Assembly (NCBI GenBank): GCA_963833215.1
Contig: CAWHXE010000018.1
Location: forward strand, 170,970 to 234,969
Length of the DNA stretch: 64,000 bases
Source of the DNA: an uncultured Cytophagales bacterium
GTDB taxonomy: Bacteria > Bacteroidota > Bacteroidia > Cytophagales > Cyclobacteriaceae
Direction: 5' to 3'
This document shows positions 17,244-43,851 of this stretch, piece by piece. Numbering within the stretch: the first letter of the stretch is position 1; every line of letters starts with the position of its first letter. Made by a program: the position numbers and the translations under genes. Below the pieces are notes generated by a model. It saw nothing but the letters and a program-made list of their open reading frames with translations. It was not told the DNA's origin and searched no databases.

Positions 17244-17245
17244 TT

Positions 17246-20907: not shown

Positions 20908-23379
20908 CTACTCGCGGTAATATACTCGTTTCACACGTTCGCCGACTTTAGTCAGCAGTTCGTAGGGGATGCTCTCCAGCGGTTTGGCCAACTGCCACAG
21001 CGTTTCCTGATCCTCAAAAATGATTACCTCGTCGCCTTCTTCCACGCCCAGGCCGGTCACGTCTACCATGATCATGTCCATGCACACCCGCCCCACGGTG
21101 GGCACCCAGTGTCCGCGGATTTTCACGCGGGCCCGCCCGTTGCCGAAGCGGCGGTCGAAGCCATCGGCGTAGCCAATGGCGATGGTGGCCGTCTGCGTGG
21201 GCCGATCAATTACTCCCTGCCGACTGTAGCCCACCGTGTCGCCCGCCCGCAACTGCTTCACCTGCGACACTACCGTTCGGAGCCGCGCCACCGGCCGCAG
21301 GGCGTGCGGATCTTCGCCCCAGGTATCCACGCCGTACAGTCCGCCGCCCAGGCGCACCATGTCGTACTGGTAGTCCGGAAACCGCAGCATGCCCACCGTG
21401 TTGGCCACGTGCCGAATGGGCGTATAACCCAGCACCTCGATCAACCGTCGGCAACCCCGATCAAACAAGGCCACCTGTTGGTGGGTGAAGTCGTCGTGCT
21501 CGGTATGGTCGGAGGCCACCATGTGGCTAAAGATGCTGGCGACGTGCAGCGTAGGATGTTGCTGTAAAACCGTTACCAGTTGATTCCACTCACCCTCGAC
21601 GAAGCCCAGGCGGTGCATGCCGGTGTCGAGCTTCAGGTGTACGGGCGGCACGTGGGGCAGGTAGGGCATTTCGTCGATAAAGCTCTGCAGCAGGCGGAAG
21701 CTATACAGTTCGGGCTCCAGCCGGTAGTCGGCCATCTTACCGAAGCTGTCGGGCGAGGGGTTGAGCACGATGATCGGCAAACGAATGCCCCGCTCGCGCA
21801 GCGTAATGCCCTCGTCAACGTAGGCTACCATCAGGTAATCAATCTGGTGGTACTGCAGCAGGTTGGCCACCTCAAAGGCTGATCCGCCGTACGAAAAGGC
21901 TTTCACCACGCCCAGCACCCGCACGCCGGGTTGCAAGTGGCTGCGGTAGTAGTTCAGGTTGTCCATCACCGCGTCCAGGTTGATCTCCAGCACCGTGCCG
22001 TGAATCTTTTGCTGCAAACGCTGCACAATCTTTTCAAAGGCAAAGGCCCGCGCACCCTTCACCAGAATGCTCTCGTGACTGAACGAAGCCAGGTCCACCT
22101 CCCGAAGAAACTGCTCGGTGGCGGGGTAGGCTTCGTAGGTGAAAGCAGCGTCCGCAAAAATAGTAGTTGCCTCACGCATGCGAGGGCCAATGCCAATTAG
22201 TCGGTTAACGTGATGATTTTCTAGTAGCTCCCGCACCTCATGGTAGAGTTCGTTTTCCGGCTGACCGGTTTGCAGCATGTCCGATACGATCACGGTCTTC
22301 CGGTCGTGCTGCAACTGCTGGTTTAGAAAGTCTAAGGCCATCCCGAAGCTGGCCATGTCGTGGCTGTAACTGTCGTCGACCAGGTGGCAATAGTTGATGC
22401 CCTGCTTCAGCTCCAGCCGCATGGCCACGCGTTGCAGGTGCCGCAGCCCGTCTTGGATGGTGGCGGCCTCATAACCCGCGTCCAGCATAAACACCATACC
22501 GTGTAAGGCATTTTCCAGGGAAGCTTCATCCTGAAAAGGCAAGACAAACAAATAGTTGAGGTCCGCGCTTGCTACGTGCACCGTTAGTTGCGTGTTCTTT
22601 CCCTGCGGTTCTGCCCGTACGCGGTACGCGGCCGCCGGGGCATCGTTGAGCGACCACGTGAGGTGCTGCCGGTCGGGGTACATTTCCTGCAATATTGTTT
22701 GTATCGGTTCTGCTTCGTAGCGGTAGATGATTTTCTCCGCTTCCGCAAAGAGTAGTGCCTTTTCCTGAATTTTTTGGGTGCGACTAGCAAAACCCTCGTC
22801 GTGGGCGGGGCCAATGTTGGTGAAGATGCCTACCGTAGGGCGAATTACCCGGGCCACCCGCGCCATTTCGCCGGGTCGGGAAATGCCGGCTTCAAAGATG
22901 CCCAATTGGTGCCGCTCGTTGAGGCCCCACACCGACAGGGGCACACCGATCTGCGAGTTGTAGCTCTTCGGACTTATCGCCACCGCCTGGTGCGGGCTAA
23001 GCAATTGGTAGAGCCATTCTTTTACGATCGTTTTCCCGTTGCTACCGGTGAGCCCGATCACCGGTATGATGAACTGCTGCCGGTGCGCGGCTACCAGCTC
23101 CTGAAGTGCCGTGATGCCGTGGTCCACTTGCAGGACGTTCGCTTCGGGTAAGGGGTGAGCTACTGGTTTCTCTACCACAAACTGCCGCACCCCGCGGGCG
23201 TAAAGTTCGGGGATGAACCGGTGCCCATCGTGGTGCAGGCCGTCTATGGCAAAAAACAGGGTTTCCGCACCCCCGTCGCCCCGCCGACTGTCGGTGAGCA
23301 AATAGCGCACGGGGCGCTTGAGATCATGCATGCCCAGCAGCGTACCCCCGAGAATGTCCGGCAAGTCAGAAAAGCGCAT
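20908..23379 (-). CDS. murF: Bifunctional UDP-N-acetylmuramoyl-tripeptide--D-alanyl-D-alanine ligase (MurF) / alanine racemase
   Basis: 823 aa. N-terminal Mur ligase domains (GLTGSNGKT...) and a C-terminal alanine racemase fold (AVVKAFSYGGSAFEVAN...). Confidence 0.85.
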   Translation of the reverse strand: MRFSDLPDILGGTLLGMHDLKRPVRYLLTDSRRGDGGAETLFFAIDGLHHDGHRFIPELYARGVRQFVVEKPVAHPLPEANVLQVDHGITALQELVAAHRQQFIIPVIGLTGSNGKTIVKEWLYQLLSPHQAVAISPKSYNSQIGVPLSVWGLNERHQLGIFEAGISRPGEMARVARVIRPTVGIFTNIGPAHDEGFASRTQKIQEKALLFAEAEKIIYRYEAEPIQTILQEMYPDRQHLTWSLNDAPAAAYRVRAEPQGKNTQLTVHVASADLNYLFVLPFQDEASLENALHGMVFMLDAGYEAATIQDGLRHLQRVAMRLELKQGINYCHLVDDSYSHDMASFGMALDFLNQQLQHDRKTVIVSDMLQTGQPENELYHEVRELLENHHVNRLIGIGPRMREATTIFADAAFTYEAYPATEQFLREVDLASFSHESILVKGARAFAFEKIVQRLQQKIHGTVLEINLDAVMDNLNYYRSHLQPGVRVLGVVKAFSYGGSAFEVANLLQYHQIDYLMVAYVDEGITLRERGIRLPIIVLNPSPDSFGKMADYRLEPELYSFRLLQSFIDEMPYLPHVPPVHLKLDTGMHRLGFVEGEWNQLVTVLQQHPTLHVASIFSHMVASDHTEHDDFTHQQVALFDRGCRRLIEVLGYTPIRHVANTVGMLRFPDYQYDMVRLGGGLYGVDTWGEDPHALRPVARLRTVVSQVKQLRAGDTVGYSRQGVIDRPTQTATIAIGYADGFDRRFGNGRARVKIRGHWVPTVGRVCMDMIMVDVTGLGVEEGDEVIIFEDQETLWQLAKPLESIPYELLTKVGERVKRVYYRE

Positions 23380-23421: not shown

Positions 23422-25397
23422 TCAGGATATCTCCTCCAATTCCACTTCCAGATAGTAGGACAGCAGTTGAATAAGTTTCTCAAACTCGATGGGCTTGGTG
23501 GTGTAGTCGTTCATGCCGGCGGCCCGGGCTTCGGCCTGTTGCTCCTCGAAGGCGTCGGCCGACATGGCGATGATGGGCAGGTCGCGGTGAGCGGGGTTCT
23601 GCCGCAGCAGGCGGGTAGCTTCCAGTCCGTCCATCACGGGCATATGAATGTCCATGAGCACCAGGTTGGGTTTCAACTCCGCTACGCGCTCGATGCCTTC
23701 CTTACCGTTATTGGCCAGGTGCAGCGTGATGCCCAGGCGCTTGAACAGGGCCACCACGACCAACTGATTCACTTTATTGTCTTCTACCAGCAGCACGCTG
23801 TTTTCGGAGGTGAAGTGATACTTGCCCGGCGTCAGGGTGCGAACTTCCGGCTCGGCCTCGGAGCAGGCGGCTTCCACGTAAGGAAGGGTGAGCGTGAAGG
23901 TGCTGCCCTGGCCCACCGCGCTCTCCAGCGAAAGCGTTCCGCCAAGGATGGCAACCAGCTTCTGGGTGATGGATAGCCCCAGTCCGGTGCCGCCGTACTT
24001 TCGGGTGATGGTATTATCGGCCTGCTCGAAGGGCTCAAAGATGCTTGCTTGCCGCTCGGGTGGGATGCCGATGCCCTGGTCGGTCACGCTAAACTGAAGT
24101 ACTTTGGCCGTGGGGTTGGCGGCCAGTGCCAGTACCACACTTTTTCCCTCGTCCGTGAACTTGATGGCGTTCGACACCAGGTTCATCAGAATTTGGTTGA
24201 GCATGGTGCGGTCGGTCTCAATGCACCCGGGAACGCCTTCTCCGGCTTCGTAAGTGAATTTCACTCCCTTTTCCATCGCTTTGATGCGGTTGATCTGGTA
24301 GGTCCCTTTGCAGACCGCTTCCACCGCAACGGCACCCTTGGAAAGGTTGAACTTACCCGCCTCAATCTTTGATAGGTCCAGGATGTTGTTGATCAGCTCG
24401 GCCAGGTTTTTCCCGCTCATCCGCACATTTTCCAGGTACTGCAAGAAACGAGGGGGCACATTGGCCACCTCAATCTCGTTAATCATAATCTCGCTGAAGC
24501 CCACAATGGCGTTCAGGGGAGTACGTATCTCGTGGCTCATGTTGGCCAGAAAGTTCGACTTGGCCTGGTTGGCGGCTTCAGCCTGGGTGCGGGCGGCTTC
24601 CACGTCGGACAACGATTTTTTCAGACGATTTCGGCTGTCACGCAGATCCTGCGTTTGGGTATTCACCTCTTTTTCCAGATTGAGGCGGTGCTGTTCCAAT
24701 TGCTCGTTGAGCACGATGAGTTCTTCCTGGTGCTGTAGCAATTGTTCTTTGTTGACCGACAGTTCGTAGTACTGTTCAAACATTTCCGAAAAAGGAATTT
24801 CTCTTGTTGCTTGGTGAACACCCAGAACACAATACCATTGAATACGATGCCCACCAGAAAGATGCTCCATCGAATATACTGGCTTAGGATGCTGCCTTCT
24901 TCATGCACTCGCGGAAAGAGCTGATAGTCTGACCAGATTATTAAAATAAAGGCCAAAAAAGGCAATGCCACCCCAATACGCACCAGGGCTTTTTCCTTCT
25001 TATCAGCAATGATAAAGGGGTATCCTACTAGGGTTACCACCAAAACTTCCACCAATCCGTTTTTCCCCAGCGCTGAGGCGTAGACCAAAGCTAGAAAACT
25101 GAATACAATCAAGAAGACGTACTTAGCAGCGATGTGGTAGCGCAAGCGGTTTAGGAGAGGGGGAATTAGCAATGTCACTCCGCAACCAGCCGACACCCAA
25201 ATCATGATACGGTCGGCCTCCAAGAGCAGATACGTTATTGCGTAGAAAGTGGCAATAGAAGACCCAAGAATGCTGAATATCGAAACAAGCTGAATCCGAC
25301 TTTTTGCCTCATTCTGAAAGAGAAACTCGTTCAGTGACGTGCGTGCGTTTGCGTATCCGCTCGCCAACTTTGATAAACATGACAATACCAATTGCAT
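23422..25397 (-). CDS. Hybrid sensor histidine kinase/response regulator (N-terminal multi-TM sensor, HisKA, HATPase_c, REC); frameshift near 24795-24805
   Basis: 24663..25397 encodes ~6 TM helices, then leaves frame. 23422..24870 continues with the H-box (SHEIRTPLNAI), HATPase and a REC domain (LLVEDNKVNQ...D...). Confidence 0.75.
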
Positions 25398-28472: not shown

Positions 28473-29249
28473 CTAGTGCTGTCGCATCCAGTGTTCCAGT
28501 TCGCCCACCTTCTTCTCCAGCAAGGCGATGCGCTCTTCCTGCATCGAGGGCGGATCAAGAATAGTGCTGTAGAAACCGTCCACTTTCCAGAGTTCTTGCC
28601 AGTTGTGTTTCGACCAGTCCAGGCGAATGAAGTTCGGATTGTCGGGGCGGAATTCCAGCGTTGGGGTGGTGCTGACCAGCCGACGAACGTAAATATTCTG
28701 GTCGGTCACCAGCACGTAGACTTCGTTTTTGCGCAGGTCTTTTTTCTCCACCGGCGAACACGACAGAATGTCGCCGTGCAGCAGGCCGTGGCCGTTAAAT
28801 TCCATCGCGTTATCCTGCACCTCAAAAGCGCGGGTCTTTTCGTACTGCGTGTTCGGTAGCCGGACAAACGGCAGGTTGTTGATGTAGTCCTTGTGGTCGT
28901 AGTTGACGATGTATTCCAGGTAGTTTTCTTTGACAACCAGTGGGGTGTCTTCCTTCCGGTGGTCTTTGTCCATCAACGCCAGCCGCTCGGCATCCTCAGC
29001 AGAAGTATCGTGCTCAATGATGTTGAGTTGATACAGTTCGTCAAAGGTCAGCTCTTTGGTGAGCAGCGTGTCAATAGAAAGACTAAAATGGTTGGCAATG
29101 CTAATGACTGTGTCTATTCGAGGTTCGGCCCGTCCCTCCTCATAAGAACCAACGCTGGCTCTAGATACACTAAATAGGTCTGAAAACTCATTCTGACTTA
29201 TTTTCTGAGCACTTCTAATCTTCTTTATGTTCTTTCCAATCACTGACAT
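28473..29249 (-). CDS. XRE-family HTH + S24 (LexA/CI-like) peptidase-domain transcriptional repressor
   Basis: N-terminal HTH (IKKIRSAQKISQNEFSDLFSVSRASVGSYEEG) and a C-terminal S24 fold. Start taken at the internal MSVIGK by track arithmetic. Confidence 0.7.
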   Translation of the reverse strand: MSVIGKNIKKIRSAQKISQNEFSDLFSVSRASVGSYEEGRAEPRIDTVISIANHFSLSIDTLLTKELTFDELYQLNIIEHDTSAEDAERLALMDKDHRKEDTPLVVKENYLEYIVNYDHKDYINNLPFVRLPNTQYEKTRAFEVQDNAMEFNGHGLLHGDILSCSPVEKKDLRKNEVYVLVTDQNIYVRRLVSTTPTLEFRPDNPNFIRLDWSKHNWQELWKVDGFYSTILDPPSMQEERIALLEKKVGELEHWMRQH

Positions 29250-29439
29250 ACAATATATTTTAGCCAACTTTATTAGTAATGATAACTTTATTAGCAAATC
29301 TACGTATTAATTATTATACTGCAAGAGCAATCCAAAACTATTCAGCAGTTATTTGCCAAACCTGACCCACCATCACCATGAAATCTTTTAAACAATTAAC
29401 GTATCTTATTTCCTCCCTAACCCTTTCGTGAAAGATGAT

Positions 29440-29556
29440 GAAGTTAGCCCGTGGCAACCAGCAGTAAGCCACCAATCACTATCCATCAATACCAATAACC
29501 CAAAACCTAATCCCTAATCCCCAAAACCTAATATCCACCCAAAAACCCCATAACCC
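29440..29556. repeat. Strand-skewed AC-rich tract with degenerate CCTAATCC repeats (GGGATTAGGGATTAGG on the opposite strand)
   Basis: The plus strand is almost free of G and T. The minus strand has six or more GGG/GGGG runs, including telomere-like TTAGGG units. Confidence 0.5.
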
Positions 29557-30279
29557 ATGAGCATTTTCAATCGACTATTTAAAGTAGGACAAGCCGAAGC
29601 GCACAATGCGATCAATAAGTTGGAAGATCCGATTAAACTCACCCAGCAGGGCATTCGCGATATGCGGACCGAACTAGACAAAGCCCTACAGGCAATGGCC
29701 GAAGTGAAGGCCATGAAAATCCGGGCGCAACGTGAGGTAAGAAACGCCGAACAACAGTCGCAAGACTATGAGCAAAAGGCCGTTCTGTTGCTTAAGAAAG
29801 CCGAAACCGGCGATATAGCACCGAGCGAAGCGGACCGACTAGCCACCGAAGCCCTGAATAGAAAAGAACGGGCCGACCAGGAAGCGAACCGCCTAAACGG
29901 AGAGCAACAGCAGTACGAGGCGTCCGTGAAAAAGCTGGAAGGCAACGTTGACGTGCTCAAGTCCAACATCAATACCTGGGAAAATGAGCTAAAGAACCTA
30001 GAAGCCCGCCTGAAAGTGAGCACGGCCACCAAATCGATCAACAAGCAAATGACCAGCATCGACACGTTGAGCACAACGGCGATGTTAGAGCGCATGAAAT
30101 CTAAGGTGGAAGCCGAAGAAGCGCTGGCCGAATCGTACGGCGAACTGGCGAACGAACTCGCAAAACGTCTGGACGCGGAAATCGAGGAAGCCCTGGGCGG
30201 CGGCGACAATCCGGCCGCTTCGGAAAAACTGCTGGAACTGAAAAAACGATTACAAGAAAACAACAACAACGATGCTTGA
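29557..30279 (+). CDS. pspA: PspA/IM30 (phage-shock protein A / Vipp1, ESCRT-III-like) family protein
   Basis: 240 aa, all coiled coil, typical PspA N-terminus (MSIFNRLFKVGQAEAHNAINKLEDPIKLTQQGIRDM...). Confidence 0.85.
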   Translation: MSIFNRLFKVGQAEAHNAINKLEDPIKLTQQGIRDMRTELDKALQAMAEVKAMKIRAQREVRNAEQQSQDYEQKAVLLLKKAETGDIAPSEADRLATEALNRKERADQEANRLNGEQQQYEASVKKLEGNVDVLKSNINTWENELKNLEARLKVSTATKSINKQMTSIDTLSTTAMLERMKSKVEAEEALAESYGELANELAKRLDAEIEEALGGGDNPAASEKLLELKKRLQENNNNDA

Positions 30280-30895
30280 GCTACTCGACGCTGCCGTTTC
30301 GGCCCCGAATATTATCCCCACCGCCGGGCTGGTGTTCGTACTGATCTACTGGCTGGTGGTCATCCTGGGAGCCATCGACCTGGACTTCTTCGATGTGGAC
30401 GTAGACTTGGAGGCCGAGGCCGACGTTGACGGAGAGTTGTCGGTGTCCTGGCTCAACCACGTGCTGGTTTTCTTCAACCTGGGCCAGGTGCCGTTCATGC
30501 TGTTTCTCACCTTCCTGGTGGTGCCCTGGTGGGCCATCACGGTGCTGGGCAACCACTACTCGGGCAACGAATCATTCGTGCTGTCGCTGCTGGTGCTGGT
30601 TCCCGCCCTGCTGGCTAGTTTGTTCATCGCCAAATTTCTGACCACGCCCTTCGTGCGGGTGTATCAGGCGCTGGACCAGGAAGACAATACGACACCGGTG
30701 GGAAAAATCTGTCAGATAACTTCCTCAGCCAGTCCCACAAAGGTGGGGCAAGCGCAGGTATCCACCAATGGCGCGCCCATTGTGCTCAACGTACGGGCCT
30801 ACGAGGGCAGTTCGCTGCTGGCGGGCGACTCAGCAATGGTCATTGAGTACGACGCCGGGCGCAACGTCTACTTGGTGGAACCCTACATCAGCTAA
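30272..30895 (+). CDS. YqiJ-like (DUF1449) membrane protein with a C-terminal NfeD-like OB-fold
   Basis: 207 aa with 3-4 TM helices and a C-terminal beta-rich domain (GKICQITSSASPTKVGQAQV...). It overlaps pspA by 8 nt. Confidence 0.7.
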   Translation: MLELLDAAVSAPNIIPTAGLVFVLIYWLVVILGAIDLDFFDVDVDLEAEADVDGELSVSWLNHVLVFFNLGQVPFMLFLTFLVVPWWAITVLGNHYSGNESFVLSLLVLVPALLASLFIAKFLTTPFVRVYQALDQEDNTTPVGKICQITSSASPTKVGQAQVSTNGAPIVLNVRAYEGSSLLAGDSAMVIEYDAGRNVYLVEPYIS

Positions 30896-30952
30896 CGACA
30901 TTCCGTCACTCTTTCATTCAATCATTTTATTTGCCACCTAAATAACCAAATC

Positions 30953-33049
30953 ATGGGAACATCAATAACACTGTTTTTACTAATTCTAGCAGTTGTCGTC
31001 GTGCTAGGCATGCTGGTTTTCTTCATCAAAATGTACCAAAAAGCGGTGCAGGGAGAAGCGCTGGTTCGTACGGGTTCGGGCGACGTGAAAGTCTCCTTTT
31101 CCGGCATCATGGTCGTGCCCGTCCTCCACAAGCTGGAGGTAATGGACATCACCCTAAAGGCGATGGAAATCTCACGGGTCGGCAAAGACGGCCTCGTGTG
31201 CCGGGACAACCTGCGGGCTGATATCAAGGTATCGTTCTTTATTCGGGTCAACAAAACCCGCGAAGACGTGGTGCACGTGGCCCAGTCGATTGGGTGCAAC
31301 CGGGCGTCTGACCCACAAGAACTACAGATGCTCTTCGATGCCAAGTTTTCGGAAGCCCTGAAGACGGTCGGTAAACACTTCGAGTTTGTGGAGTTGTATA
31401 ACTCACGCGCCCAGTTTAAAGAAAAAATCCTGGAAGAAATTGGTACGGACCTCAACGGTTACATCCTCAACGATTGCGCCATCGACTATCTCGAGCAAAC
31501 ACCGCTGGAAAGTCTGAACGAGAACAACATCCTGGACGCTGAAGGCATCAAGAAGATCATCGACCTGACCGCCCAGCAGAAGGTGCAGGCCAACCTGATC
31601 GAGAACGAGAAGCGCAAGATGCTCAAGAAGCAGGACGTGGAAGCCGAAGAAACCATCCTCGAGCTCGACAAGCAACTCACCGAGCAGCAGGAAAAGCAGG
31701 CCCGCGAGGTATCCAACATCCGGGCGCGGGAATCGGCCGAGCGCGAAAAAGTGAAGCAGGAAGAACACAAGCGCGCCGAGCAGGCCCGCATCGCCACCGA
31801 AGAAGAGATCGGCACACTGGAACAAAACAAGGAGCGGCAAATCCTGGTCGCCCAGCGCAACAAAGAACGCACCGACGCCGTTGAGCAGGAACGCGTGGAC
31901 CAGGCCCGCTTGCTGGAATCTACCGATAAGGAACGCGTGGTTGAGTTGGCCCGTATTGAGAAAGAGAAAGCCCTGGAAGAAGAGCGCCGGAATATTCAGG
32001 AAGTGATCCGCGAACGGGTAATCGTGGAGAAAGCCACGGTGATCGAGGAGGAAAAAATCAAGGACACCCGGGCAATGGCCGAGGCCGACCGAAGCAAGCA
32101 GGTGGCCATCGTGAACGCCGAGCGCGACGCGCAGGAATCTTTGGTGAAAGAAATCAAAGCCGCCGAAGCAGCCCAGCAGGCCGCCGAGCACCGCGCCAAG
32201 CAGGTGATGATCGACGCCCAGGCTGAGGAGGATTCGGCCGCGCACCGGGCCGTGGCCATGAAGACGATGGCCGACGCGGAAGCGGCCCAGAAAGCCGCCA
32301 TCGGCCTGTCCGAAGCCCAGGTGATGGAAGCCAAGGCGGCGGCCCGCGAGAAAGAGGGCGAAGCCGAAGCCGGAGTGATCGAGGCGCAGGCCGAAGCCGA
32401 CGCCAAGGGGATCAGCCTGCGCGCCGCGGCCCAGTCGGAAGCCGATCAGAAGCTGGGCATGGTGGCCGCGCAGATCAGCCTCGAGCAGGGAAAATCCGAC
32501 GCCCAGGTAGTCGAGATCAAGGCCGCGGCCGACGAAAAGCAGGGACTGGCCGAAGCCCGCGTGATGCAGCAGAAGTACAAGGCCGAAGCCGAGGGCATTC
32601 GCGAAAAAGCCAATGCCATGCAGGTGCTGGACGGTCCGGGCAAAGAGCACGAAGAATTTAAGCTGCGCCTGGAAACCGAACGCACTCTGGAACTGGCTCG
32701 CATCGACATCCAGCGCGAAATCGCCGAGTCACAAGCGAAGGTCATCAGCGAAGCCCTGAAGGCCGCCCACATCGAGATCATCGGCGGCGAAACCATGCTC
32801 TTTGACCAAATTATGGGCTCCATCGCCAAGGGCAAAGCCATCGACGGCATGATCAGCAAGAACGGGTCGTTGCAAGAGGTGAAGACCGCCCTGCTGCACT
32901 CCAACGGCGGCGGCGGACTCAAGGAAAACCTGCGCAAGCTGGTGGACCAGTTCGGCGTTTCTTCCGATGACCTAAAGAACCTGACGGTATCGGCTTTGCT
33001 GCTGAAGATGATGAACCAGACCGACGGGAAGAGGAAAAAGACGGATTAA
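30953..33049 (+). CDS. Flotillin-like SPFH/Band-7 protein (YqiK/FloT family)
   Basis: 698 aa. N-terminal TM helix, SPFH domain, then a long EA-rich coiled-coil flotillin domain. Confidence 0.8.
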   Translation: MGTSITLFLLILAVVVVLGMLVFFIKMYQKAVQGEALVRTGSGDVKVSFSGIMVVPVLHKLEVMDITLKAMEISRVGKDGLVCRDNLRADIKVSFFIRVNKTREDVVHVAQSIGCNRASDPQELQMLFDAKFSEALKTVGKHFEFVELYNSRAQFKEKILEEIGTDLNGYILNDCAIDYLEQTPLESLNENNILDAEGIKKIIDLTAQQKVQANLIENEKRKMLKKQDVEAEETILELDKQLTEQQEKQAREVSNIRARESAEREKVKQEEHKRAEQARIATEEEIGTLEQNKERQILVAQRNKERTDAVEQERVDQARLLESTDKERVVELARIEKEKALEEERRNIQEVIRERVIVEKATVIEEEKIKDTRAMAEADRSKQVAIVNAERDAQESLVKEIKAAEAAQQAAEHRAKQVMIDAQAEEDSAAHRAVAMKTMADAEAAQKAAIGLSEAQVMEAKAAAREKEGEAEAGVIEAQAEADAKGISLRAAAQSEADQKLGMVAAQISLEQGKSDAQVVEIKAAADEKQGLAEARVMQQKYKAEAEGIREKANAMQVLDGPGKEHEEFKLRLETERTLELARIDIQREIAESQAKVISEALKAAHIEIIGGETMLFDQIMGSIAKGKAIDGMISKNGSLQEVKTALLHSNGGGGLKENLRKLVDQFGVSSDDLKNLTVSALLLKMMNQTDGKRKKTD

Positions 33050-33210
33050 ATAAGTTGCTCGACCTGGCCCGCACCGCCGGATTAGCGGACGAGCCGATGC
33101 GGAATATTCAGTTGTAGAAGTGAGGCAGTCAGGTGGCTTCAAGTCGTTCGGCCGTTGCTAACTACTTACCGAAAAAATCGTAAATTGTAACTGATAAAAC
33201 TGCAAAAGCA

Positions 33211-33795
33211 ATGGACGAAGAAGTCAAAGAACGAGTCAGCACCTTGGAAGTTATTTTAGGAGAGTTCGTAGTACGTACCGAAAAGATGTTGCGGCGTATG
33301 GAACAGGACACAAAGACCTTCAAAGAAGAAGTGCGCCAGGACCGAAAAGAAATGAACAAGAGGTGGGGTGACCTAGCTAACCGCCTTGGTACCCTTGCTG
33401 AAGATATTGCTGCTCCCAACGTGCGCACAATGGCGACTACACGATTTGGATGCACAGATATTGATAGCTATTCAGTACGCGTGATGCGGCGAAGTCGGCA
33501 AGACCGAAAGAGACTAACCGAGTTTGATGTCGTTATTACCTGCGGCGACTACTTGTTTATCAACGAAACCAAATCAACTCCACGGGAAGAATACGTCCTT
33601 GATTTTGCCGAAAAGTTAGAAGACATTTTTGACTTTCTTCCGGAATACGAAGGCAAAACGGTGGTCCCTATATTTTCTAGCCTGCACCTGCCCGAACCGA
33701 TTGTTCAACTGCTTACCAAGCACAAAATCTACGCGATGGCTTTGGGTGGGGAGACGATGGAGTTACTGAATTACGAAGCGGTGCGGCATCAGTAG
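33211..33795 (+). CDS. Hypothetical protein with an N-terminal coiled coil and a putative PD-(D/E)xK nuclease-fold core
   Basis: 194 aa. The candidate motif EFDVVITCGDYLFINETKS matches D-x(n)-E-x-K geometry. No family name assigned. Confidence 0.4.
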   Translation: MDEEVKERVSTLEVILGEFVVRTEKMLRRMEQDTKTFKEEVRQDRKEMNKRWGDLANRLGTLAEDIAAPNVRTMATTRFGCTDIDSYSVRVMRRSRQDRKRLTEFDVVITCGDYLFINETKSTPREEYVLDFAEKLEDIFDFLPEYEGKTVVPIFSSLHLPEPIVQLLTKHKIYAMALGGETMELLNYEAVRHQ

Positions 33796-33864
33796 TGGGT
33801 CCTTACGTAGTTGTGGAGCTTTTGATGCCGAGACCTTACTATTTACTAAAAAGTTTCCTACTGA

Positions 33865-36800
33865 ATGACAGCAGCGACCACTACCGAACTGGGCAGCAGC
33901 ACCTACGAAATCCTGCAAAACCGACTCCAGCAGCAAACCCAGCAGTTGCGCGAACGTTTGCAGCAACTCAACCAGGCCCGCCAGGAGGTATTCGGAGCCA
34001 TCGAGACCAAGTTGATCGCCACCGAGCGCATTCATACCGAGCACAACTGCGTGCCCTACGATATGGTGCCGCTGGACACTAAGTTTCTGTTCGGCTACAA
34101 CGTGCATCTGGGCCTCAAGACTGCCGTGGAGCTGTCCGATGTCTTTAGTGTTTACGACTATCAGGAGCACAGCTTCCGCTCGTTGGGCTACGAACTGCTC
34201 GATGATGCCACCTTCGCGGCTGACTTTCAGAAACTGTATAAGTACTACAAAGACACCAAATTTATTCGCTTCGTGCGTCGCGGGACCGTACCTGTATATG
34301 GTCTTCCGAATCAGCAAAAGTGCCAGCGACCTCAAGGCCTTCAAGTGGGAACTAGACGGCGAAGCCTTGGTCTACCGCGACAACCGCAGCGAGCACGAAA
34401 TTGAACTGCCCGAGCAGCACGACTTCGTCTGGCAACGCACCACCCGCGACGATCAGCGCGAGGGGAAGTATCCGCACATCTCGGTGGCCGACCGGGTGTT
34501 CGTCGAAACCATCGGCGGCGACCTGACCATCAAGGTAGAAGACAATACCGAACAGGGGCAGGGCATCTACCGCGAGGAAGTTGAGAACCCCGACCAGACG
34601 CTCGACGATGCCGAAGTACACTACGCACTGCTGGGCAACATCGTGCTGCTCAAAATCCGTCCGTACCAGGAAAAGCATTACCGATACATTGCCTACAACG
34701 CCAAGTTGCAAGAAGCCCGCCGCATCGACGCGGTGGCGCAGGCCGGTATTCTGCTACCTGATGATCAGGGTATTCTATTTCCGAACGGCTACTACCTACA
34801 AACCGGTGACTTCAAACAGTTTGATAGCGAACTAAACGACTTGCGCTTCGAGCAAAAGCTGATGTCGCCCAACGGCGAAGACTATCTGTACGTTTTCTAT
34901 CACGCTGAGCGGGGCGTGTACCAACTGCTGCCCTACAACATCATTGAGCAGACGGTGCGGACGCCCATCATCGGCCACGGCTACGCCATTTTCGAGAACG
35001 GTGAACTGTGCTACTTCAACGCCGACGCCGAACCCAAGAAGCACCACGCCATCCGCATCTGGCAAACCCCCTACGTGGGTCCCAACTTTCCGCTCACCGA
35101 GCAAAGCGATTCGTACCTGTTCAAGATTGGCAACCAGGACATTGTGCGGGCGATGGCCGAGTGCCAGGCCCTAATCAGCCTAGTGGAGAAGGGCGAAAGC
35201 TACCAGGATTTGTACGTCGACCTGCAAAAGCAAGCCACCACCGTGCTGGACGCCTACTACTGGCTGGACAGTCCCGAAGCGGCCACCATCAGCGAACCAT
35301 TGCGGGCCATCCGCGAAACCGCCGTTGCCGCCACCGACGAGTTCGAGAAGGTGCGCAACCTCCGCCAGAATACCCAGCATCGCACCGATGAAGTGCTGCA
35401 ATCGGCCGATCACCTGCAGCGCGACCTGACCAAGAAGTCGTACGAGCACATCAATGATTTTGTGGCGGCACTGTCGCAACTGCGGGAGCGGCGCGGCGAA
35501 GTGATCTCGCTCAAAGAACTGCGTTTTGTTGACGAGGCGCGCGTGGCGGAGTACGAAACCCAACTGGCCGAATCGGCCGAGCGAACGGCCCAGCGGTGCG
35601 TGCGCTTTCTGCTGCGCGACGATGCGCTGCAACCCTACCACCAGCGCGTTCAATCGCTGGAAACCGACATCGCGGGTGTAAAGAAGGTGGTAGAAGCCCA
35701 GGAGCTAACCGAGCAAATCAAGCAATTGTCGGGCGAACTGGAGATGCTCATCGAGATCGTAAGCAACCTGACGATTAAGGATGCGACCCAAACTACCCAA
35801 ATTGTCGACAACATCTCGGCCATCTTCTCCGAACTCAACAAAGCCAAAGCGCAACTACAGCGCCGCCGCAAAGAGCTGATGAGCGCCGAAGGCAAAGCCG
35901 AATTTTTTGCGCAGACCAAGCTCATCAATCAGGCGATGGTGAACTACCTCGACGTGTCGGACACACCCGAAAAGTGCGACGAGTACGCCAACAAGCTGAT
36001 GGTGCAACTCGAAGAACTGGAGGGTAAGTTTGCCGAGTTCGACGAGTTCATTGAGCAGATCGCCCAGCTGCGCGAGGAGGTTTACAACGCCTTCGAGTCG
36101 CGCAAGGTGCAGTTGGTAGAGGCCCGCAACAAGCGCGCTACCAACCTGGTGCAGTCGGCCGACCGCATCCTGAAGGCGGTGCAAAACCGGGTGAGTAGCA
36201 TCAAATCGGTGACCGAACTGAACGGCTACTTTGCCGCTGACCTGATGATCGAGAAAACGCGCCGCATCATCGAGGAACTGCAACAACTCGGCGACAGCGT
36301 TCGGGCCGACGAAGTGCAGAGTCGCCTGAAGTCGGCGCAGGAAGACGCGGTGCGTCAACTGAAAGATCGTACCGAGTTGTTCGTCGACGGGCAGGACGTG
36401 ATTCGCTTCGGGGAGCACGCCTTTTCGGTGAACACCGCCGACCTGGCCCTGACCACGGTGGCTAAAGACGATCAGTTGTTTTATCACCTCACCGGCACCA
36501 ACTTTTATGAGCCAATGGCTCCCGAGCAAGTGGAGCCCTACCGGCCGTACTGGAACCAGTCGCTGGTATCGGAAACCGCGGAGGTGTACCGCGCCGAGTT
36601 CCTGGCCTACCAGCTCTACCGGGAAACCGAAGCTAGCCCTTCGTTTGAAGAACTAGCGGAGAAAGATTCGGATGCGCTGACCGCCTACGTGCAGCAGCGG
36701 ATGGCCCCGCGCTACGACGAAGGCTACGTGAAGGGCGTGCACGACCACGACGCGGCACGCATCCTGGGAGCGTTGGTGACGATGCGGCGCTCGGCCGGAC

Positions 36801-38735
36801 TGCTGCGCTACCCGGCCGAAGCGCGGACCTGCGCCGCCTTGTGCTGGCTGCACTTTCTGGAAGCTCCCGGTGCGCCAGCAGCTCAACCACCAGCTCAAGG
36901 GAGCCGGAGCCATCCTGCACGTCTTTCCCCACAGCCACGAGTTTGACCAGGTGCAGCAGGCCATCACCGCGGTGGTGGACGAGTTTGTGCGGGAAACCCA
37001 GCTTTTCGGCGGCAAAACCGTGGCCCCGGCGGCTGAGTATCTCTTCTACGAACTGATCAGCGACGACGATTTTGCCATCGATCAGGCGTCGGTGACGCTG
37101 CGCGACCAGTTTAGGAAGTACCTCGAAAAAAGCCAGGCCACTGAGGCCTACCGGCAGTCAGTAGACAATTTGCAGGATGATCGGTGGCTTCAGTACGGCC
37201 TCATCCGCCGGTGGGTGCGTTCGTTTGCCGAGCAGACCGAGCAGGACGTTCGCTTTGCCGATGAGGCCGCCCTGCTGCTGTTCTCCGACCAACTGGATAC
37301 CGACCAGGTGGCTGAAGCCACCCTGCACCAAACCCTCACCGGTTTGCAGGGTAACCATCCGCTGCTCCCGGAAGGAAACTACGCGCTGGACTACAATCAG
37401 TTCATGGATCGGCTGTCGGTTTTCGCCGAAGAAACGGTGCCTACGTTCCGAGCGTTTCAGGCGCTCAAGCGGCAGCTAACGGCAGACTTCACGAATGAGC
37501 TGCGGCTGGAGGAATTTAAACCGCGGGTGATGTCGTCCTTCGTGCGCAATCAACTGATTGACCAGGTCTACCTGCCGTTGATCGGAGCTAATTTGGCCAA
37601 GCAAATCGGCACCGCCGGAGCCAACAAGCGCACCGATCTGATGGGCATGCTGCTGCTCATCTCGCCGCCCGGCTACGGCAAAACCACCCTGATGGAGTAT
37701 CTGGCGAACCGCCTGGGCATTATTTTTATGAAAATCAACGGCCCGGCCATTGGGCACGCGGTGACGGCCGTAGACCCGGCGCAGGCTCCCAACGCCGGGG
37801 CGCGCGAGGAGCTGGAAAAGCTCAACCTGGCCTTCGAGATGGGCGACAACGTGATGATCTACCTGGACGACATCCAGCACTGCCACCCCGAGTTTTTGCA
37901 GAAGTTTATCTCCCTCTGCGACGCCCAGCGCAAGATCGAGGGCGTGTACAAGGGACGCAGCAAAACCTACGACTTTCGGGGTAAGAAGGTGTGCGTGGTG
38001 ATGGCGGGCAACCCCTACACCGAAAGCGGCGACAAGTTTCAGATTCCCGATATGCTGACCAACCGCGCCGACATCTACAACCTGGGCGACATCATCGGCG
38101 ACTCGGCCGACGCCTTCAAGCTGAGCTACATCGAGAACTGCCTGACCTCCAATCCCGTGCTCAACCAACTGGCCAGCAAAAGTCAGCGCGACGTGCAAAC
38201 GCTGGTGCGGATGGCCGAAACCGGCGAGCGGGCCGGGGCCGAGTTTGAGACCAACCATACGGCCGAAGAAGTGCGGGAGTACGTGACCGTGCTGGAAAAA
38301 CTACTGACTGTGCGCGACGTGGTGCTGCGGGTGAACACCGAGTACATTCACTCGGCGGGACAGGCGGACGCGTACCGCACCGAGCCATCCTTTAAGTTGC
38401 AGGGATCGTACCGCGACATGAACAAGCTGGCCGAGCGGGTGGTGCCGGTGATGAACGAGGCCGAACTGCAAACCCTAATCCGCGCGCACTACGAAAACGA
38501 AGCCCAGACCCTCACCACCGGGGCCGAGGCCAATCTGCTAAAGCTCAACGAAATGCGCAGCTTGCTTACCGACGAAGAGCAGCAGCGCTGGGAAGACATC
38601 AAAGCAATTTTTGTGAAGCAGCAACGCGCCAAAGGATACGGTCAGAACGGAATGGCGCAGGCGGTGGAGACGATGGAAGACATTTCGGGCAGCCTGCGCG
38701 GAATTGCGGAGGCGCTGCGGGGGAAAGAGGATTAG
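33865..38735 (+). CDS. Giant (~1,620 aa) protein: unassigned N-terminal ~450 aa, long coiled-coil middle, C-terminal AAA+ ATPase (MoxR/AAA_5-like) domain; two frameshifts
   Basis: Three colinear ORFs (33865..34404, 34139..36946, 36870..38735). Walker A LLISPPGYGKTT, Walker B VMIYLDDIQ, sensor-1-like VCVVMAGNPYT. Frame breaks at GGG(G) 34281-34284 and CC(C) 36866-36868. Confidence 0.7.
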
Positions 38736-38965
38736 CATTGAAAGTGTAGAATGGTCGGTGAGTCGATGAATAGTTGCGCAAGAAGCTGCGTGTTGCTATG
38801 AACAATTCGTTAAAAGTTCTGTTTTAGAGAACTTTTCATATATTTGTATCATAGCTGGGCTGATGAAAAGAATCATTGCGAAAAGCAGTGGGCATTTATT
38901 CGGTTCATTGGCACCCACGTTGAGTACGATAAAGTGGACGCAAATACGATTTAGATTAAAATACT

Positions 38966-39346
38966 ATGAAAGTAAAACCCATCAAAACCGAAGAGGACTA
39001 CCGAAGGGCACTCGGGCGGCTTGAGTTAATTTTTGACGCTTCAACCGACACTGATGAAGGTGACGAAGCAGAAATTTTATCTCTACTTATAGAAAATTAC
39101 GAAAACGAGTATTATCCCATTGAGGCACCCGACCCGATTGAGGCTATCAAAATTCGAATGGAAGAGCTCAACATGCGCCAGAAGGACTTGGTGGGGATCA
39201 TCGGGGGCAAAAGCCGCGTATCGGAAATCTTGAACCGAAAGAAAAAGCTGACCGTAGAAATGATCAGAGAATTAGAGCAATTGCTTCATATCTCCGCATC
39301 GGTTTTAGTGCATGATTATCAGCTTACCAGCCAGCAAGAAAAGTAA
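38966..39346 (+). CDS. HigA-like XRE-family HTH protein (antitoxin-type regulator)
   Basis: 126 aa with a C-terminal HTH (LNMRQKDLVGIIGGKSRVSEILNRKKKLTVEMIRELEQ). AT-rich local composition. Confidence 0.6.
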   Translation: MKVKPIKTEEDYRRALGRLELIFDASTDTDEGDEAEILSLLIENYENEYYPIEAPDPIEAIKIRMEELNMRQKDLVGIIGGKSRVSEILNRKKKLTVEMIRELEQLLHISASVLVHDYQLTSQQEK

Positions 39347-39433
39347 CAGCGTTTGTAGCGGAGAAAAACGGTTCTATTCCCATTAAATATGCGGAGATTA
39401 GTCCGTATATTTACCGCAAAACGACGATAGTTC

Positions 39434-40501
39434 ATGCCGAGATACATATACGAATACGAGCGTTGGCCTGAATTTGCCTGGGATAATAAACAAATCAGTT
39501 TGATTTTAGGCAAGGTTCAACATCTACAAGGAAAAGTTTTCGGGCAAATGGGAGCGCTTGGTTTTGCAGTAAAGGAAGAAACAATGTTGTCAACCTTAAC
39601 TTTGGATGTTCTAAAATCGTCTGAGATTGAAGGAGAAATGCTTAATTATGAACAGGTTCGTTCCTCGATAGCGAGAAGATTAGGATTGGAATATGCAGGT
39701 ATCGTTCACGTTGATAGAAATGTGGAAGGTGTTGTAGAAATGATGCTTGATGCAACGCAAAGGTTTGATAAACCCCTTGATCATGAACGGATTTTTGGAT
39801 GGCATGCCGCACTATTTCCAACCGGCTGGAGCGGAATACATAGAATAGATACGGGGTGTTATCGTGATGGCGAAATGCTGGTAGTTTCAGGTCCAATGGG
39901 AAGAGAGAAAATACACTTTCAAGCACCATCACCCAATGTTGTAAAAAAAGAAATGGATGAGTTTCTAGATTGGTTTAATCAAGAAACTGAACTTGACGAG
40001 GTGCTAAAAGCCGCAATTGCCCATTTTTGGTTCATCATAATTCATCCCTTTGATGATGGGAACGGGCGAATTGCCAGGGCATTATCAGACATGCTACTTG
40101 CTCGTTCCGAAGAAAGTTCTCAAAGATTTTATAGTTTGTCAAACCAGATTCTTTCTGAGAAAAAAAAGTATTATGCGGTCTTGCAGGAAGTACAATATAG
40201 TTCTGGCGATATAACGGATTGGCTAAATTGGTTTCTAAATTGTCTGTATAAAGCATTAGAGAATACGGAAGAAACGTTAAAGCGGGTTCTCAAAAAAGCA
40301 GATTTCTGGGATAAGCACAAAGAAACCTTGTTGAATAGTCGTCAAAGATTAATGTTGAACAAACTATTTGATGGATTTGATGGCAAGTTAAAATCATCTA
40401 AATGGGCTAAGATTGCTAAGTGTTCGGCTGATACTGCATTAAGAGACATAAAAGATTTGATTGAAAAAGGAATTTTACAGCAAGAAGAATCAGGAGGTTG
40501 A
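39434..40501 (+). CDS. Fic/DOC-family protein (probable AMPylator), with an N-terminal DUF4172-like region and a C-terminal wHTH
   Basis: 355 aa with the canonical Fic motif HPFDDGNGRIARAL. AT-rich. Confidence 0.85.
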   Translation: MPRYIYEYERWPEFAWDNKQISLILGKVQHLQGKVFGQMGALGFAVKEETMLSTLTLDVLKSSEIEGEMLNYEQVRSSIARRLGLEYAGIVHVDRNVEGVVEMMLDATQRFDKPLDHERIFGWHAALFPTGWSGIHRIDTGCYRDGEMLVVSGPMGREKIHFQAPSPNVVKKEMDEFLDWFNQETELDEVLKAAIAHFWFIIIHPFDDGNGRIARALSDMLLARSEESSQRFYSLSNQILSEKKKYYAVLQEVQYSSGDITDWLNWFLNCLYKALENTEETLKRVLKKADFWDKHKETLLNSRQRLMLNKLFDGFDGKLKSSKWAKIAKCSADTALRDIKDLIEKGILQQEESGG

Positions 40502-40745
40502 AGTACAAACTACGAATTTACGGAAGAATGGAGAATGCACTAGCTACAACAATGCCCATAAAAGACGAAATAGCCACTCTTAAAATTGCGATACCACTGT
40601 TGCCCTCACCGGTCAGCGAACCAGTGAAAGCCAAGAATAATCGTAAAGCTAACCAGTAGCGTCAATTACTATAATATTTCGTGATTGCGTTCAATGAATA
40701 TCATAATGATTTGTGAATGCGGCAGCAAGTGAGTAGCTTTGAAGG

Positions 40746-41864
40746 ATGATACCAAGAACGCTTGCGACACAGATACTATCAAAAATCGGTCGTGGTAAAG
40801 CCATCATGGTAATCGGGCCACGTCAAGTAGGCAAGACTACCCTGATTTTGAAATATCTGGAAGGACTCGACTACAAGTTCTTCGATGGCGACGATCCGGT
40901 AACCCGGACTTCCCTGGATACCCCTAACACCGAGCAGATCCGGGTGCTGCTTGAGAACAAAAAAGTGGTGTTTATTGATGAGGCCCAGCGAATTAATAGT
41001 ATAGGGCTAACCATGAAGATCATCGTTGATCAGTTTAAGGATGTGCAACTATGGATTAGCGGCTCTTCTTCTTTCTCGCTATTTAATGAGTTGAACGAAC
41101 CGCTAACGGGGAGGAAATGGGAATACGAGATGTTTCCAATCAGCTGGGAAGAACTGGAGCAGCACACCGGGCACTTAACGGCGGAAAGACAGTTAGAAGA
41201 CCGATTGCGATTCGGCATGTATCCCGATGTGCTCAACAATCCAGGCGAAGAGATTGAAATATTACAGAACTTAGTGAATAGCTATCTGTATAAAGATATT
41301 TTGTCTTACGCTGGTCTAAAAAAACCGGACGTTTTGGATAAACTCGTCAGAGCCCTAGCCCTGCAGGTGGGCAGTGAGGTAAACTACCAAGAACTCAGCC
41401 AGTTGGTTGGGGTGGATCGCAACACGGTTGAAAAATACATATCGGTTCTGGAAAAGGGTTACGTGGTGTTTCGCCTACCCAGTTACAACAGAAACGTGAG
41501 GAATGAGATCAAGAAGGGTAGAAAGATTTACTTCTACGACAATGGAATCAGGAACATGATTATCGGTTCTATGAATGAGATCACCTTGCGTCCGGATTTG
41601 GGGGCGCTGTGGGAGAACTTTCTTATTTCGGAACGTATCAAACAAAACAGGTATAAGTTGACCTTAGCAAAATCGTATTTCTGGAGAACCACCCAGCAAC
41701 AGGAAATAGACTACGTAGAGGAGAAAGGAACGGGGCTAAAGGCTTATGAATTTAAGTGGAGTCCCAGGAAAAAAGTGAGATTATCCAAGACTTTCACCGA
41801 CGCTTATCAAGTGGAAGGCGAGGTGATCACGAGGGAAAACTTTCGGGATTTTGTAGTGATATAG
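40746..41864 (+). CDS. AAA+ ATPase of the COG1373 type (AAA_14 + DUF4143); paralog of 17246..18439
   Basis: Walker A GPRQVGKTT, Walker B VVFIDEAQ, DUF4143-like C-terminus. Confidence 0.8.
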   Translation: MIPRTLATQILSKIGRGKAIMVIGPRQVGKTTLILKYLEGLDYKFFDGDDPVTRTSLDTPNTEQIRVLLENKKVVFIDEAQRINSIGLTMKIIVDQFKDVQLWISGSSSFSLFNELNEPLTGRKWEYEMFPISWEELEQHTGHLTAERQLEDRLRFGMYPDVLNNPGEEIEILQNLVNSYLYKDILSYAGLKKPDVLDKLVRALALQVGSEVNYQELSQLVGVDRNTVEKYISVLEKGYVVFRLPSYNRNVRNEIKKGRKIYFYDNGIRNMIIGSMNEITLRPDLGALWENFLISERIKQNRYKLTLAKSYFWRTTQQQEIDYVEEKGTGLKAYEFKWSPRKKVRLSKTFTDAYQVEGEVITRENFRDFVVI

Positions 41865-41881
41865 GTATGGGTCTAGCAACG

Positions 41882-43851
41882 CTACGACACCACAATGCCC
41901 AACTGCTCGGCGATCTCCATCTGGGTTTTCTTGAGCAACTGGTGGTTCTGCAAGATTTTTAGCTGGGCGGCTTCGTCCGGTTCGTTGAGCAGCCCCTGCC
42001 GGGTTTCTTGCAGCAACTGGTTCAGGTACACGTACTTCAGCTCCAGAATGCCCCGCTCGATCACCTCGTGGAGCACGTCTTTCTCCTGGGGCACATGGAT
42101 TTTGTAGCGCAGCTCCCAGTTTTCGCTCAGCACGTAGTGGTCCACCACCATATCAATCACTTCCTTGGCGATCACTTCATCGCCTTCGCCAATGAGCCGT
42201 TCTTCGGTCACCGCCACCCCCTGCGCGGTGAGGGCTTGGTAGCGGTCAAAAATCTGCGCATATACCTCGGTTTGCAGGGTGATGTCTTCCAGTTCCGAGA
42301 AAATGTAGTGACAAACCTTCGTTTCTTCGTCCACCGAATAATCGCCGTAGAGCACCAGCAGGCGAGTCACGCCCTTCTCCTTGTAGTAAACCGGCGGACG
42401 GCCCACCTCGGCGGCGGGTTCGGGTAGGGTTGGCGGGGCACCGTCGTTGACTGGTTCGGCGGAGCTTATTCCGGGAAACACTTCGGATTGCGAATTTTGG
42501 GAGGCCCGTCGCGCTTCGCTGCGTTGCTGCTGGATGTGAATTTTGTTAAGCTCAGCAAACAGCACGGCCTCGTCCATATCCAGGCGCTGTCCGGTGGTTT
42601 TCACGTACACCTGCCGCTGGATGGGGTCGGGCACCTTGGCGATGCTGCCCACCACCTCGCGGATCAGTTCGGCCTGCCGGATGGGGTCCGACTGCGCCTC
42701 GCGCTCGAAAATGGTCGTTTTGAAGGCAATAAAATCCTCCTGATGCTCGGTGAGGTAGTCACGCAGTTCGCTGGTGCGCAGTTGGCGGGCCAGGGTGTCG
42801 GGGTCTTCGCCCTCGGGCAGCACCACCGCCCGCACGTTGAGCCCGCCCTCCAGCAGCATATCGATGCCCCGAAACGAGGCTTTGAGTCCGGCCGCGTCGC
42901 CGTCGAAGAGCACCGTCACGTTTTTGGTGTAGCGCGCAATGAGGCGAATCTGCTCGTGGGTGAGCGAGGTGCCCGACGAGGCCACCACGTTCTTGATGCC
43001 CGCCTGGTGGAGCGAGATCACGTCGGTGTAGCCTTCTACCAGGTAACACATATCCTCCTGTCGGATAAACTGCTTGGCCTGGTAGAGTCCGTAGAGCACG
43101 TCGCTCTTGTGGTAGATTGGCGTCTCGGGCGAGTTGATGTACTTCGCAACTTTCTCCGTTTTATTACCCAAAATCCGTGCGCCAAAGGCCAGCACCCGGC
43201 CCGAGATATTGTGCACCGGAAACATTACCCGCCCGCGGAAGCGGTCGTAGCTTCGCTCCGGTTTTCCACTCCTCCGCTTCTTTTTTCACCACCAAACCCG
43301 CTTTTTCCAGCAGCGTCGGGTTGTGCCCCTTCGCGGTGGCTTCCTTGAGCAGCCCGTCCCACTGGTCGAGGCTATAGCCCAGCCCAAACTCCCGGATGGT
43401 TTCTTCACTAAAGCCGCGTTCCTTAAAATAAGAAAGTCCGATGGACTGTCCTTCTTCGTTTTCCCACAGCATCTGCTGAAAGTAGGCGTTGGCAAATTTC
43501 ATGACGATAAACAGGCTCTCGCGCTCGTTCTGCGCCAGCAGCTGCTCATCGGTGGGGGCTTCTTCGGCAATCTCGATGCCGTACTTCTTGGCCAGGTGCT
43601 TGATGGCTTCCAGGTAGTTCATCCCCTCCACCTCCATCAGGAAGGTAATCGCATCGCCCGCCTTGCCCGAGCTAAAGTCTTTGAAGAACCCCTTGGAGGG
43701 CACCACGTAGAACGAGGGCGTGCGCTCCTGGTTAAAGGGACTGAGTCCGCGGTAGTTGCTGCCCGATTTTTTCAGGTTCACGTAGTCGCCCACCACCTCC
43801 AGCAGGTCGGCCCGGGCCTTGATTTCGTTCGATGGTTTCGCGGGGGATCAT
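41882..43851 (-). CDS. dnaG: DNA primase DnaG; two frameshifts
   Basis: Zinc-binding N-terminus (LKKSGSNYRGLSPFNQERTPSF), TOPRIM core (MFPVHNISGRV...EGYTDVISLHQAG). The true N-terminus MIPRETIER starts at 43851. Indels in the T6 run at 43281-43286 and the TTT run at 43824-43826. Confidence 0.85.

Follow-up and report, generated by a model that had tools for sequence, protein, structure and literature searches.

The locus described here lies within a 64-kb stretch of a contig from an uncultured Cytophagales bacterium (Cyclobacteriaceae; assembly GCA_963833215.1, contig CAWHXE010000018.1); the whole stretch is called the window below, and all positions are numbered within it. Five open reading frames (ORFs) follow one another on the plus strand, at 29557-30279, 30272-30895, 30953-33049, 33211-33795 and 33865-38735. 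The first two overlap by 8 nt and the others, as deposited, are separated by gaps of 57, 161 and 69 nt, which reproduces the layout given in an earlier sequence-only reading of this DNA. The identities which that reading had assigned to the five products were borne out by profile, hhalign and structure searches: a PspA/IM30 protein of the ESCRT-III superfamily (29557-30279; 240 aa, without a transmembrane (TM) segment), a homologue of YqiJ (30272-30895; 207 aa), a YqiK-type flotillin (30953-33117 after frame correction, the uncorrected ORF ending at 33049), a 194-aa protein of PD-(D/E)xK fold (33211-33795) and a cytoplasmic AAA+ ATPase of ~1,622 aa, which is spread over three frames (33865-38735). 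Upstream, on the minus strand, a divergent regulator of 258 aa combines an XRE-type HTH with an S24-like C-terminal domain (28473-29249), and the interval at 29250-29556, holding a direct repeat and a C/A-rich leader, forms a control region shared by both transcription directions. The view that the five genes form an operon-like unit holds for four of them and fails for the PD-(D/E)xK gene, whose adjacency is incidental by synteny. The locus is a Cytophagales-type member of a known operon family in reduced form, carrying a passenger gene, and we hold this identification, together with the modular reading of the operon set out below, with considerable confidence.

PspA/IM30 matches PF04012 with an E-value of 6.9e-45 (153.8 bits; cut-off, 33.9). 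Full-length Pfam and NCBIfam scans gave no match for either of the two proteins encoded next, and PDB sequence searches with the flotillin and the YqiJ-like family returned nothing useful; both proteins were resolved by sub-domain, orthologue and profile comparison. The 207-aa protein, a multi-pass inner-membrane protein of the YqiJ/YuaF type (DUF1449, NfeD-like), has three hydrophobic segments. The window sequence alone scores 14.5 bits against YqiJ_N, under the cut-off of 23, and 7 of 12 orthologues carry YqiJ_N; the family profile aligns with E. coli YqiJ over 173 columns (hhalign probability 95.5%, E 1.4e-8). Homology to YqiJ is supported by these comparisons, and a C-terminal NfeD-type beta-barrel is putative, NfeD being matched in two of the 12 orthologues at E 0.005. 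In the flotillin, 698 aa as deposited, one N-terminal TM segment (residues 1-32) is followed by an SPFH/Band-7 domain, a long coiled coil and a C-terminal domain. Band_7 is matched within the N-terminal residues 1-230 (E 1.6e-12; 48.3 bits, cut-off 23.6), the family profile matches E. coli YqiK (hhalign probability 99.95%, E 5.5e-38), and the C-terminal domain "Flot" of Pfam is not significant in it (E 0.72). The gene pair is thus homologous to, and ordered like, yqiJ-yqiK of E. coli and yuaF-floT of B. subtilis, in which an NfeD-like partner likewise precedes an SPFH scaffold; the E. coli yqiJ-yqiK locus, however, has neither ATPase, PspA nor regulator.

The sequence-only reading had found nothing recognisable in the giant ATPase apart from its C-terminal AAA+ part, which understates what the protein contains: Pfam profiles match DUF3686 (E 7e-144) and DUF7902 in addition to the C-terminal AAA domain (E 7e-7). 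The architecture comprises an N-terminal helix, a beta-propeller (DUF3686), a long helical and coiled-coil portion (DUF7902) and a C-terminal AAA+ module of the classical type; neither a TM segment nor a protease domain was detected in it. In a model of residues 1-560 of a 91%-identical orthologue (predicted local distance difference test, pLDDT, of 79), a helix precedes an all-beta domain at residues 52-403, after which long helices follow; the fold matches of this all-beta domain are beta-propellers. The similarity of the AAA module to p97, Cdc48, Rpt and RuvB is weak and centred on the P-loop. Among 18 orthologues the Walker A motif PPGYGKT, the sensor-1 Asn (in MAGNPYTE) and an Arg (in NRADIYN) are invariant, and over 1,600 aa the protein keeps 47-59% identity between phyla. 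The Pfam text on DUF3686 speaks of an "ATPase involved in DNA repair" and the RefSeq product name is "DNA repair ATPase"; a literature search on "DUF3686" returned no papers.

Relatives of the ATPase were collected by a scan of GTDB species genomes (at least 598 species), and the best 80 loci were analysed; together with the window and two further loci (L001 and L002), 83 sequences were compared. Gene order was counted in the 62 informative loci, namely those with at least 3.6 kb of DNA upstream of the ATPase gene. A flotillin gene lies directly upstream of it in 59 of the 62, and in 57 a YqiJ-like gene in turn immediately precedes the flotillin gene; PspA is added to these in 22 loci, and the divergent HTH-S24-like gene as well in 21. 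These loci come from Bacteroidota, Planctomycetota, Verrucomicrobiota, Desulfobacterota, Clostridia, Kiritimatiellota and Omnitrophota, while PspA occurs in 26 of the 83 sequences compared, all of them Bacteroidota. The YqiJ/NfeD-like protein, the YqiK-type flotillin and the DUF3686 ATPase constitute a conserved and probably obligate core, whereas PspA and the regulator are an add-on that, among the loci analysed, is confined to Bacteroidota. The pairing of SPFH and ATPase genes recurs on plasmid pQBR103 of P. fluorescens SBW25 (L088, 86.5-97.6 kb), in which genes resembling yjfK, yjfL, yjfM and yjfC, which are polyamine/PspA-associated, precede a hypothetical gene, an SPFH gene and a DUF3686 ATPase gene, with a PLD-family gene nearby.

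The same arrangement has been published on purely computational, comparative-genomic grounds (Ravi et al., 2024, mSystems, PMC11237479). That work lists, in its Table S3, for Dokdonia donghaensis (ANH61663.1) a divergent cHTH+Protease gene followed by CesT_Tir, PspA, YqiJ-YuaF, Band-7+coiled-coil+Flotillin and beta-propeller+coiled-coil+AAA-ATPase genes, describes abbreviated flotillin/YqiJ(/ATPase) operons as more widespread, and treats the CesT/Tir-PspA dyad as the core of the operon class (PMC11237479). RefSeq records the same order on a Hymenobacter DG25B plasmid, namely a LexA-family regulator, a Tir chaperone, PspA, DUF1449, a hypothetical protein and a DNA repair ATPase. Gene order and orientation agree between the window and the operon of Ravi et al. 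(2024), as do the divergent regulator, PspA, the YqiJ-type TM protein, the flotillin composed of TM segment, SPFH domain and coiled coil, and the propeller/coiled-coil/AAA+ ATPase; the window differs in that its lineage lacks CesT_Tir_1, carries the extra PD-(D/E)xK gene and has no PLD gene. CesT_Tir_1 (E 2.9e-58) is encoded between regulator and pspA in 20 of the 26 PspA-bearing loci. A profile built from these 20 neighbours has no match in the window, L001, L002 or L040, and the 307-nt intergenic region of the window leaves no room for the gene. Since the CesT/Tir member of the dyad is missing, the window is a reduced variant. Hence, the sequence-only statement that no characterised system has this composition does not stand as a claim of novelty, given the published operon (PMC11237479) and the RefSeq annotation, but it is right in that the system is still experimentally uncharacterised; no experimental study of the operon was found in the literature searched.

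The 194-aa protein had been noted for a nuclease-like D...ExK motif, and with this the predicted fold and the conserved residues agree. Its AlphaFold2 (AF2) model (pLDDT 86) consists of a long N-terminal helix and an alpha/beta domain, and the top PDB matches in Foldseek, with probability 1.0, are all PD-(D/E)xK proteins: VC1899, Card1/Can2/Cdn1, NucS, R.BspD6I and McrC. Residues E64-D65, D106 and E119-x-K121 show little or no variation among 41 sequences of the family. The model thus supports a PD-(D/E)xK nuclease fold, for which catalysis is a prediction only. The protein belongs to the DUF8196/DUF3782-like standalone PD-(D/E)xK proteins, sharing their catalytic motif, with PF26618 recorded on many homologues; the family comprises 3,070 cluster representatives, all of them small standalone proteins. 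Its N-terminal helix contains a variable number of FKEEM(R/S)-like repeats of heptad type, and by expansion of these repeats homologues range from 160 to ~350 aa.

In contrast to these standalone relatives, the position inside this operon is peculiar to one small clade. The gene stands beside the ATPase gene only in the window, L001, L002 and L087; in none of the 80 GTDB loci is it next to the ATPase. At L087, where the ATPase is 71% identical, it is adjoined by a PIN toxin-antitoxin (TA) pair. Tunicatimonas pelagia has the operon without the gene, a 60%-identical homologue lying ~600 kb away beside SusC/D genes, and further homologues follow ccmF or stand among PDDEXK_2 genes. Because it accompanies the ATPase only in close relatives and its homologues occupy unrelated contexts, the 194-aa gene is, judged by its distribution, a lineage-restricted passenger and not a conserved part of the system; by the test of synteny proposed in the sequence-only reading itself, the adjacency of the nuclease (0/80, with scattered homologues) is incidental. 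Small selfish or accessory genes have settled repeatedly in the gap in which it lies: where the distance between flotillin and ATPase genes is long in other loci, it is filled by DUF559 endonucleases, IS200-like Y1 transposases, AbiEii, a DMP19-like protein, an esterase or a PIN_3 TA pair. Such cargo is located at ~9.3-9.9 kb in L011/L012, 5659-6183 in L026, 6718-7248 in L062, 8664-9380 in L042, 7279-7921 in L087 and 8609-9235 in L004. In E. coli K-12 (L090, 3192208-3195240), yqiK is followed by the type I TA loci sibD/ibsD and sibE/ibsE, which echo the TA insertions beside flotillin genes elsewhere.

These results bear directly on the possibility that the AAA+ ATPase and the PD-(D/E)xK protein make up an McrBC-like module of nucleic-acid restriction or repair, to which the membrane genes are merely adjacent. 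McrC is indeed among the fold matches of the small protein, the AAA module shows a weak RuvB_N similarity, and Pfam's wording on DUF3686 points towards DNA repair. Nevertheless, the constant neighbour of the ATPase is the flotillin/YqiJ pair and not the nuclease, the nuclease gene occurs by itself in thousands of contexts, a DNA-binding domain was not detected, and the similarity to RuvB is confined to the P-loop. We consider such a module extremely improbable, and the pairing of nuclease and ATPase was rejected on synteny.

The sequence-only reading had leaned towards a membrane-acting defence or abortive-infection system of all five genes, in which PspA and flotillin would serve as sensor or scaffold, the PD-(D/E)xK protein as effector and the ATPase as motor. 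Several observations speak for it: the nuclease fold and its catalytic motif are real, the module is accessory and patchily distributed, some loci adjoin genes with strong matches to defence models, and the flotillin-ATPase gap draws TA and Abi-type genes. On the other hand, the proposed effector is missing from all 80 GTDB loci as well as from the T. pelagia locus, and its homologues are scattered. A search of PADLOC-DB 2.0 with the five operon proteins yielded only weak coiled-coil and P-loop matches (E >= 1e-4), which amount to noise, and the regulator gave generic HTH matches. The 47-59% identity of the ATPase across phyla is unusually high for a defence gene. Moreover, no phage copies were found, plasmid records number 13 and are mostly megaplasmids or chromids, and the 150 flanking proteins examined with Pfam at 39 loci belong mostly to metabolic families, with no family occurring in more than four proteins. 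The literature connecting SPFH proteins or flotillins with anti-phage defence held nothing on this system. A defence or abortive-infection role is therefore unsupported, though not refuted, and we regard the five-gene system as highly unlikely.

The control of the operon was also viewed differently after analysis. The regulator matches HTH_3 (E 3e-10) and Peptidase_S24 (E 6e-8); the gene probably begins at the ATG at 29249 and then encodes 258 aa, like its relatives, and the uncorrected ORF reaches a TTG at 29297. The presence of a divergent XRE/S24-like gene was confirmed and its tie to the operon is borne out by synteny, as all but one of the 22 PspA-bearing loci counted have it, in divergent orientation to pspA. 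Its description as a CI/LexA-like, self-cleaving repressor is at odds with the alignment to E. coli LexA and UmuD, in which the Ser column holds E, D, Q or T and the Lys column Arg in the window protein and in nearly all of 24 family members; the alignment is of low identity. Since the Ser/Lys dyad is not conserved, LexA-type autocleavage is unlikely, and with moderate confidence we regard the family as probably one of non-cleaving pseudo-peptidases. Induction in the style of RecA/LexA was accordingly rejected, the catalytic dyad being missing. By the start of the regulator gene, at 29266-29297, a direct repeat AACTTTATTAG(T/C)AA occurs twice and is kept in L001, L002 and T. pelagia (L086); it is a plausible candidate operator. 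The leader at 29480-29556 is C/A-rich and loosely repeated, with G-runs on the minus strand. It had been taken for a G-quadruplex (G4)-prone tract, yet neither of its strands contains a canonical G4 motif, whether loops of 1-7 nt or of 1-12 nt are allowed, and a 15-nt loop would be needed; control by a G4 was rejected on motif grounds. A scan for sigma-70 promoters and terminators gave counts no higher than in shuffled sequences, Bacteroidota promoters being different from the sigma-70 model.

Three frame breaks affect the two largest genes of the locus. The ATPase is split over the frames 33865-34404, 34139-36946 and 36870-38735. Comparison with the intact orthologue P0002 (1,623 aa, 91% identity) places the breaks at ~34283 and 36855-36862, and DNA alignment with two intact relatives resolves them as single-base insertions near 34281 and 36863; when one base is taken out at each site, a single ORF of 1,622 aa results, to be compared with 1,617-1,637 aa in intact orthologues of 86-91% identity. 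In the flotillin gene one nucleotide is missing near 33035 relative to L002, and its conserved C-terminal 25 residues run on in another frame to 33117. With the true end at ~33117, the gap to the next gene is therefore ~93 nt, not 161 nt. Were these breaks real, the module would be decaying and this copy a non-functional pseudogene cluster, a case that the sequence-only reading had raised for the ATPase. The deposited assembly does carry them, an 859-aa fragment identical to the window (P0001) is on record, and no break falls in a long homopolymer. However, all three indels sit, when set against two intact relatives, within otherwise conserved coding sequence, the frames are fully open apart from them, nucleotide identity to an intact relative is 88%, and dnaG and at least three other genes of the 64-kb window are broken in the same manner, which points to assembly error. 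The split genes elsewhere in the window are dnaG, separated into a part with the Zn-ribbon and DNAG_N and a part with DNAG_N and Toprim, a TonB-dependent receptor that is interrupted within the Plug domain, a GH9/Big_2/T9SS-tail protein and a hybrid histidine kinase. These four genes, each divided into overlapping ORFs of different frames, lie at 41882-43796, 12851-16067, 2261-7708 and 23422-25397, respectively, all on the minus strand. The assembly seems to contain many single-base indels. Because the essential primase gene dnaG and other genes of the window are split alike, we read the breaks as most probably sequencing or assembly indels and the genes as probably intact; a decaying cluster seems highly doubtful to us.

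As to what the conserved core may do, HflK/C-FtsH and prohibitin-m-AAA are SPFH cages that house an AAA+ machine. They offer the closest mechanistic analogy: in those complexes an AAA+ ATPase of the classical clade works at the membrane with an SPFH scaffold to which it is tied both genetically and functionally, and the present operon would share this coupling. The ATPase here, however, lacks a protease domain as well as a TM segment and is distinguished by its propeller and extremely long coiled coil, and beyond the AAA+ and SPFH folds the proteins of the window are not homologous to HflK/C-FtsH. A second likeness is to Vps4-ESCRT-III and PspF-PspA, in which a protein of the PspA/ESCRT-III superfamily is encoded with an AAA+ ATPase, although the ATPase here has neither the MIT domain nor the sigma-54 activator domain. 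PspA is unlikely to be the main partner of the ATPase, since flotillin co-occurs with it far more often (57 versus 22 of 62).

Given the constant partnership with flotillin and YqiJ, the soluble nature of the ATPase, a propeller and coiled coil suited to docking, and the SPFH-AAA+ precedents, the ATPase would most likely act as an ATP-driven remodeller of, or extractor from, an SPFH/NfeD membrane assembly, with PspA-dependent maintenance co-regulated in Bacteroidota. According to this proposal, the flotillin/YqiJ pair would build, at the cytoplasmic side of the membrane, an SPFH microdomain or cage. The ATPase would dock by its propeller and coiled coil and, at the expense of ATP, would put the scaffold together, take it apart or pull proteins out of it, as in SPFH-AAA+ pairs such as HflK/C-FtsH. 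PspA might add ESCRT-III-like membrane sealing under the same regulator, which may sense an envelope signal without self-cleavage of the LexA type. Our confidence in this specific mechanism is well below that in the identity and modularity of the operon.

Several points weigh against the proposal. The ATPase lacks an adjoining flotillin gene in 3 of the 62 loci. Its Walker B motif is an invariant LDD, in which Asp replaces the catalytic Glu of DE, and it has no obvious aromatic pore loop, for which reasons a classical threading unfoldase is not assured. An association among the operon's proteins is predicted from gene order, and the indels could, in principle, be real. Furthermore, strong PADLOC matches occur among the 150 flanking proteins (SspH, Mokosh-like helicases, DpdF, BrxH and WGR/SWIM_XIII), so that the flanks give a mixed picture; since several flanking genes match defence models strongly, a conflict-related role is conceivable. 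The YqiJ-flotillin-DUF3686 core might then be an ATP-driven SPFH-cage machine that senses or repairs membrane damage caused by phages or toxins, and in the window's clade the PD-(D/E)xK gene could have been co-opted as its effector. Such a role could explain the patchy distribution, the occasional defence neighbours and the TA, Abi and nuclease passengers; we think it unlikely, and we prefer the remodelling of a flotillin scaffold by a dedicated ATPase.

Beyond the operon, two low-GC patches (0.43-0.48) are seen in the window, at 38800-41900 and 16000-18500. The former, right after the ATPase gene, has genes for a small HTH protein, for a DUF4172-Fic protein and for an AAA_14/DUF4143 ATPase, and the latter a second AAA_14/DUF4143 gene. 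The genes of both patches look like accessory or mobile cargo, and those downstream of the ATPase are accessory and form no recognised defence system. At 20908-23379, on the minus strand, a single 823-aa ORF contains Mur ligase and alanine racemase domains and is an apparent murF-alr fusion.

As a claim of discovery the locus matters little: the operon type is published, annotation of its genes is routine, and the two seemingly exotic features, the nuclease and the flavour of defence, are not part of the conserved system. What the comparison defines is a testable core, made up of a YqiJ-like protein, a flotillin and a propeller/coiled-coil AAA+ ATPase, which is very highly conserved across phyla. 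This core is well suited to studies of what flotillin scaffolds do in bacteria, and of whether a dedicated ATPase exists for them.

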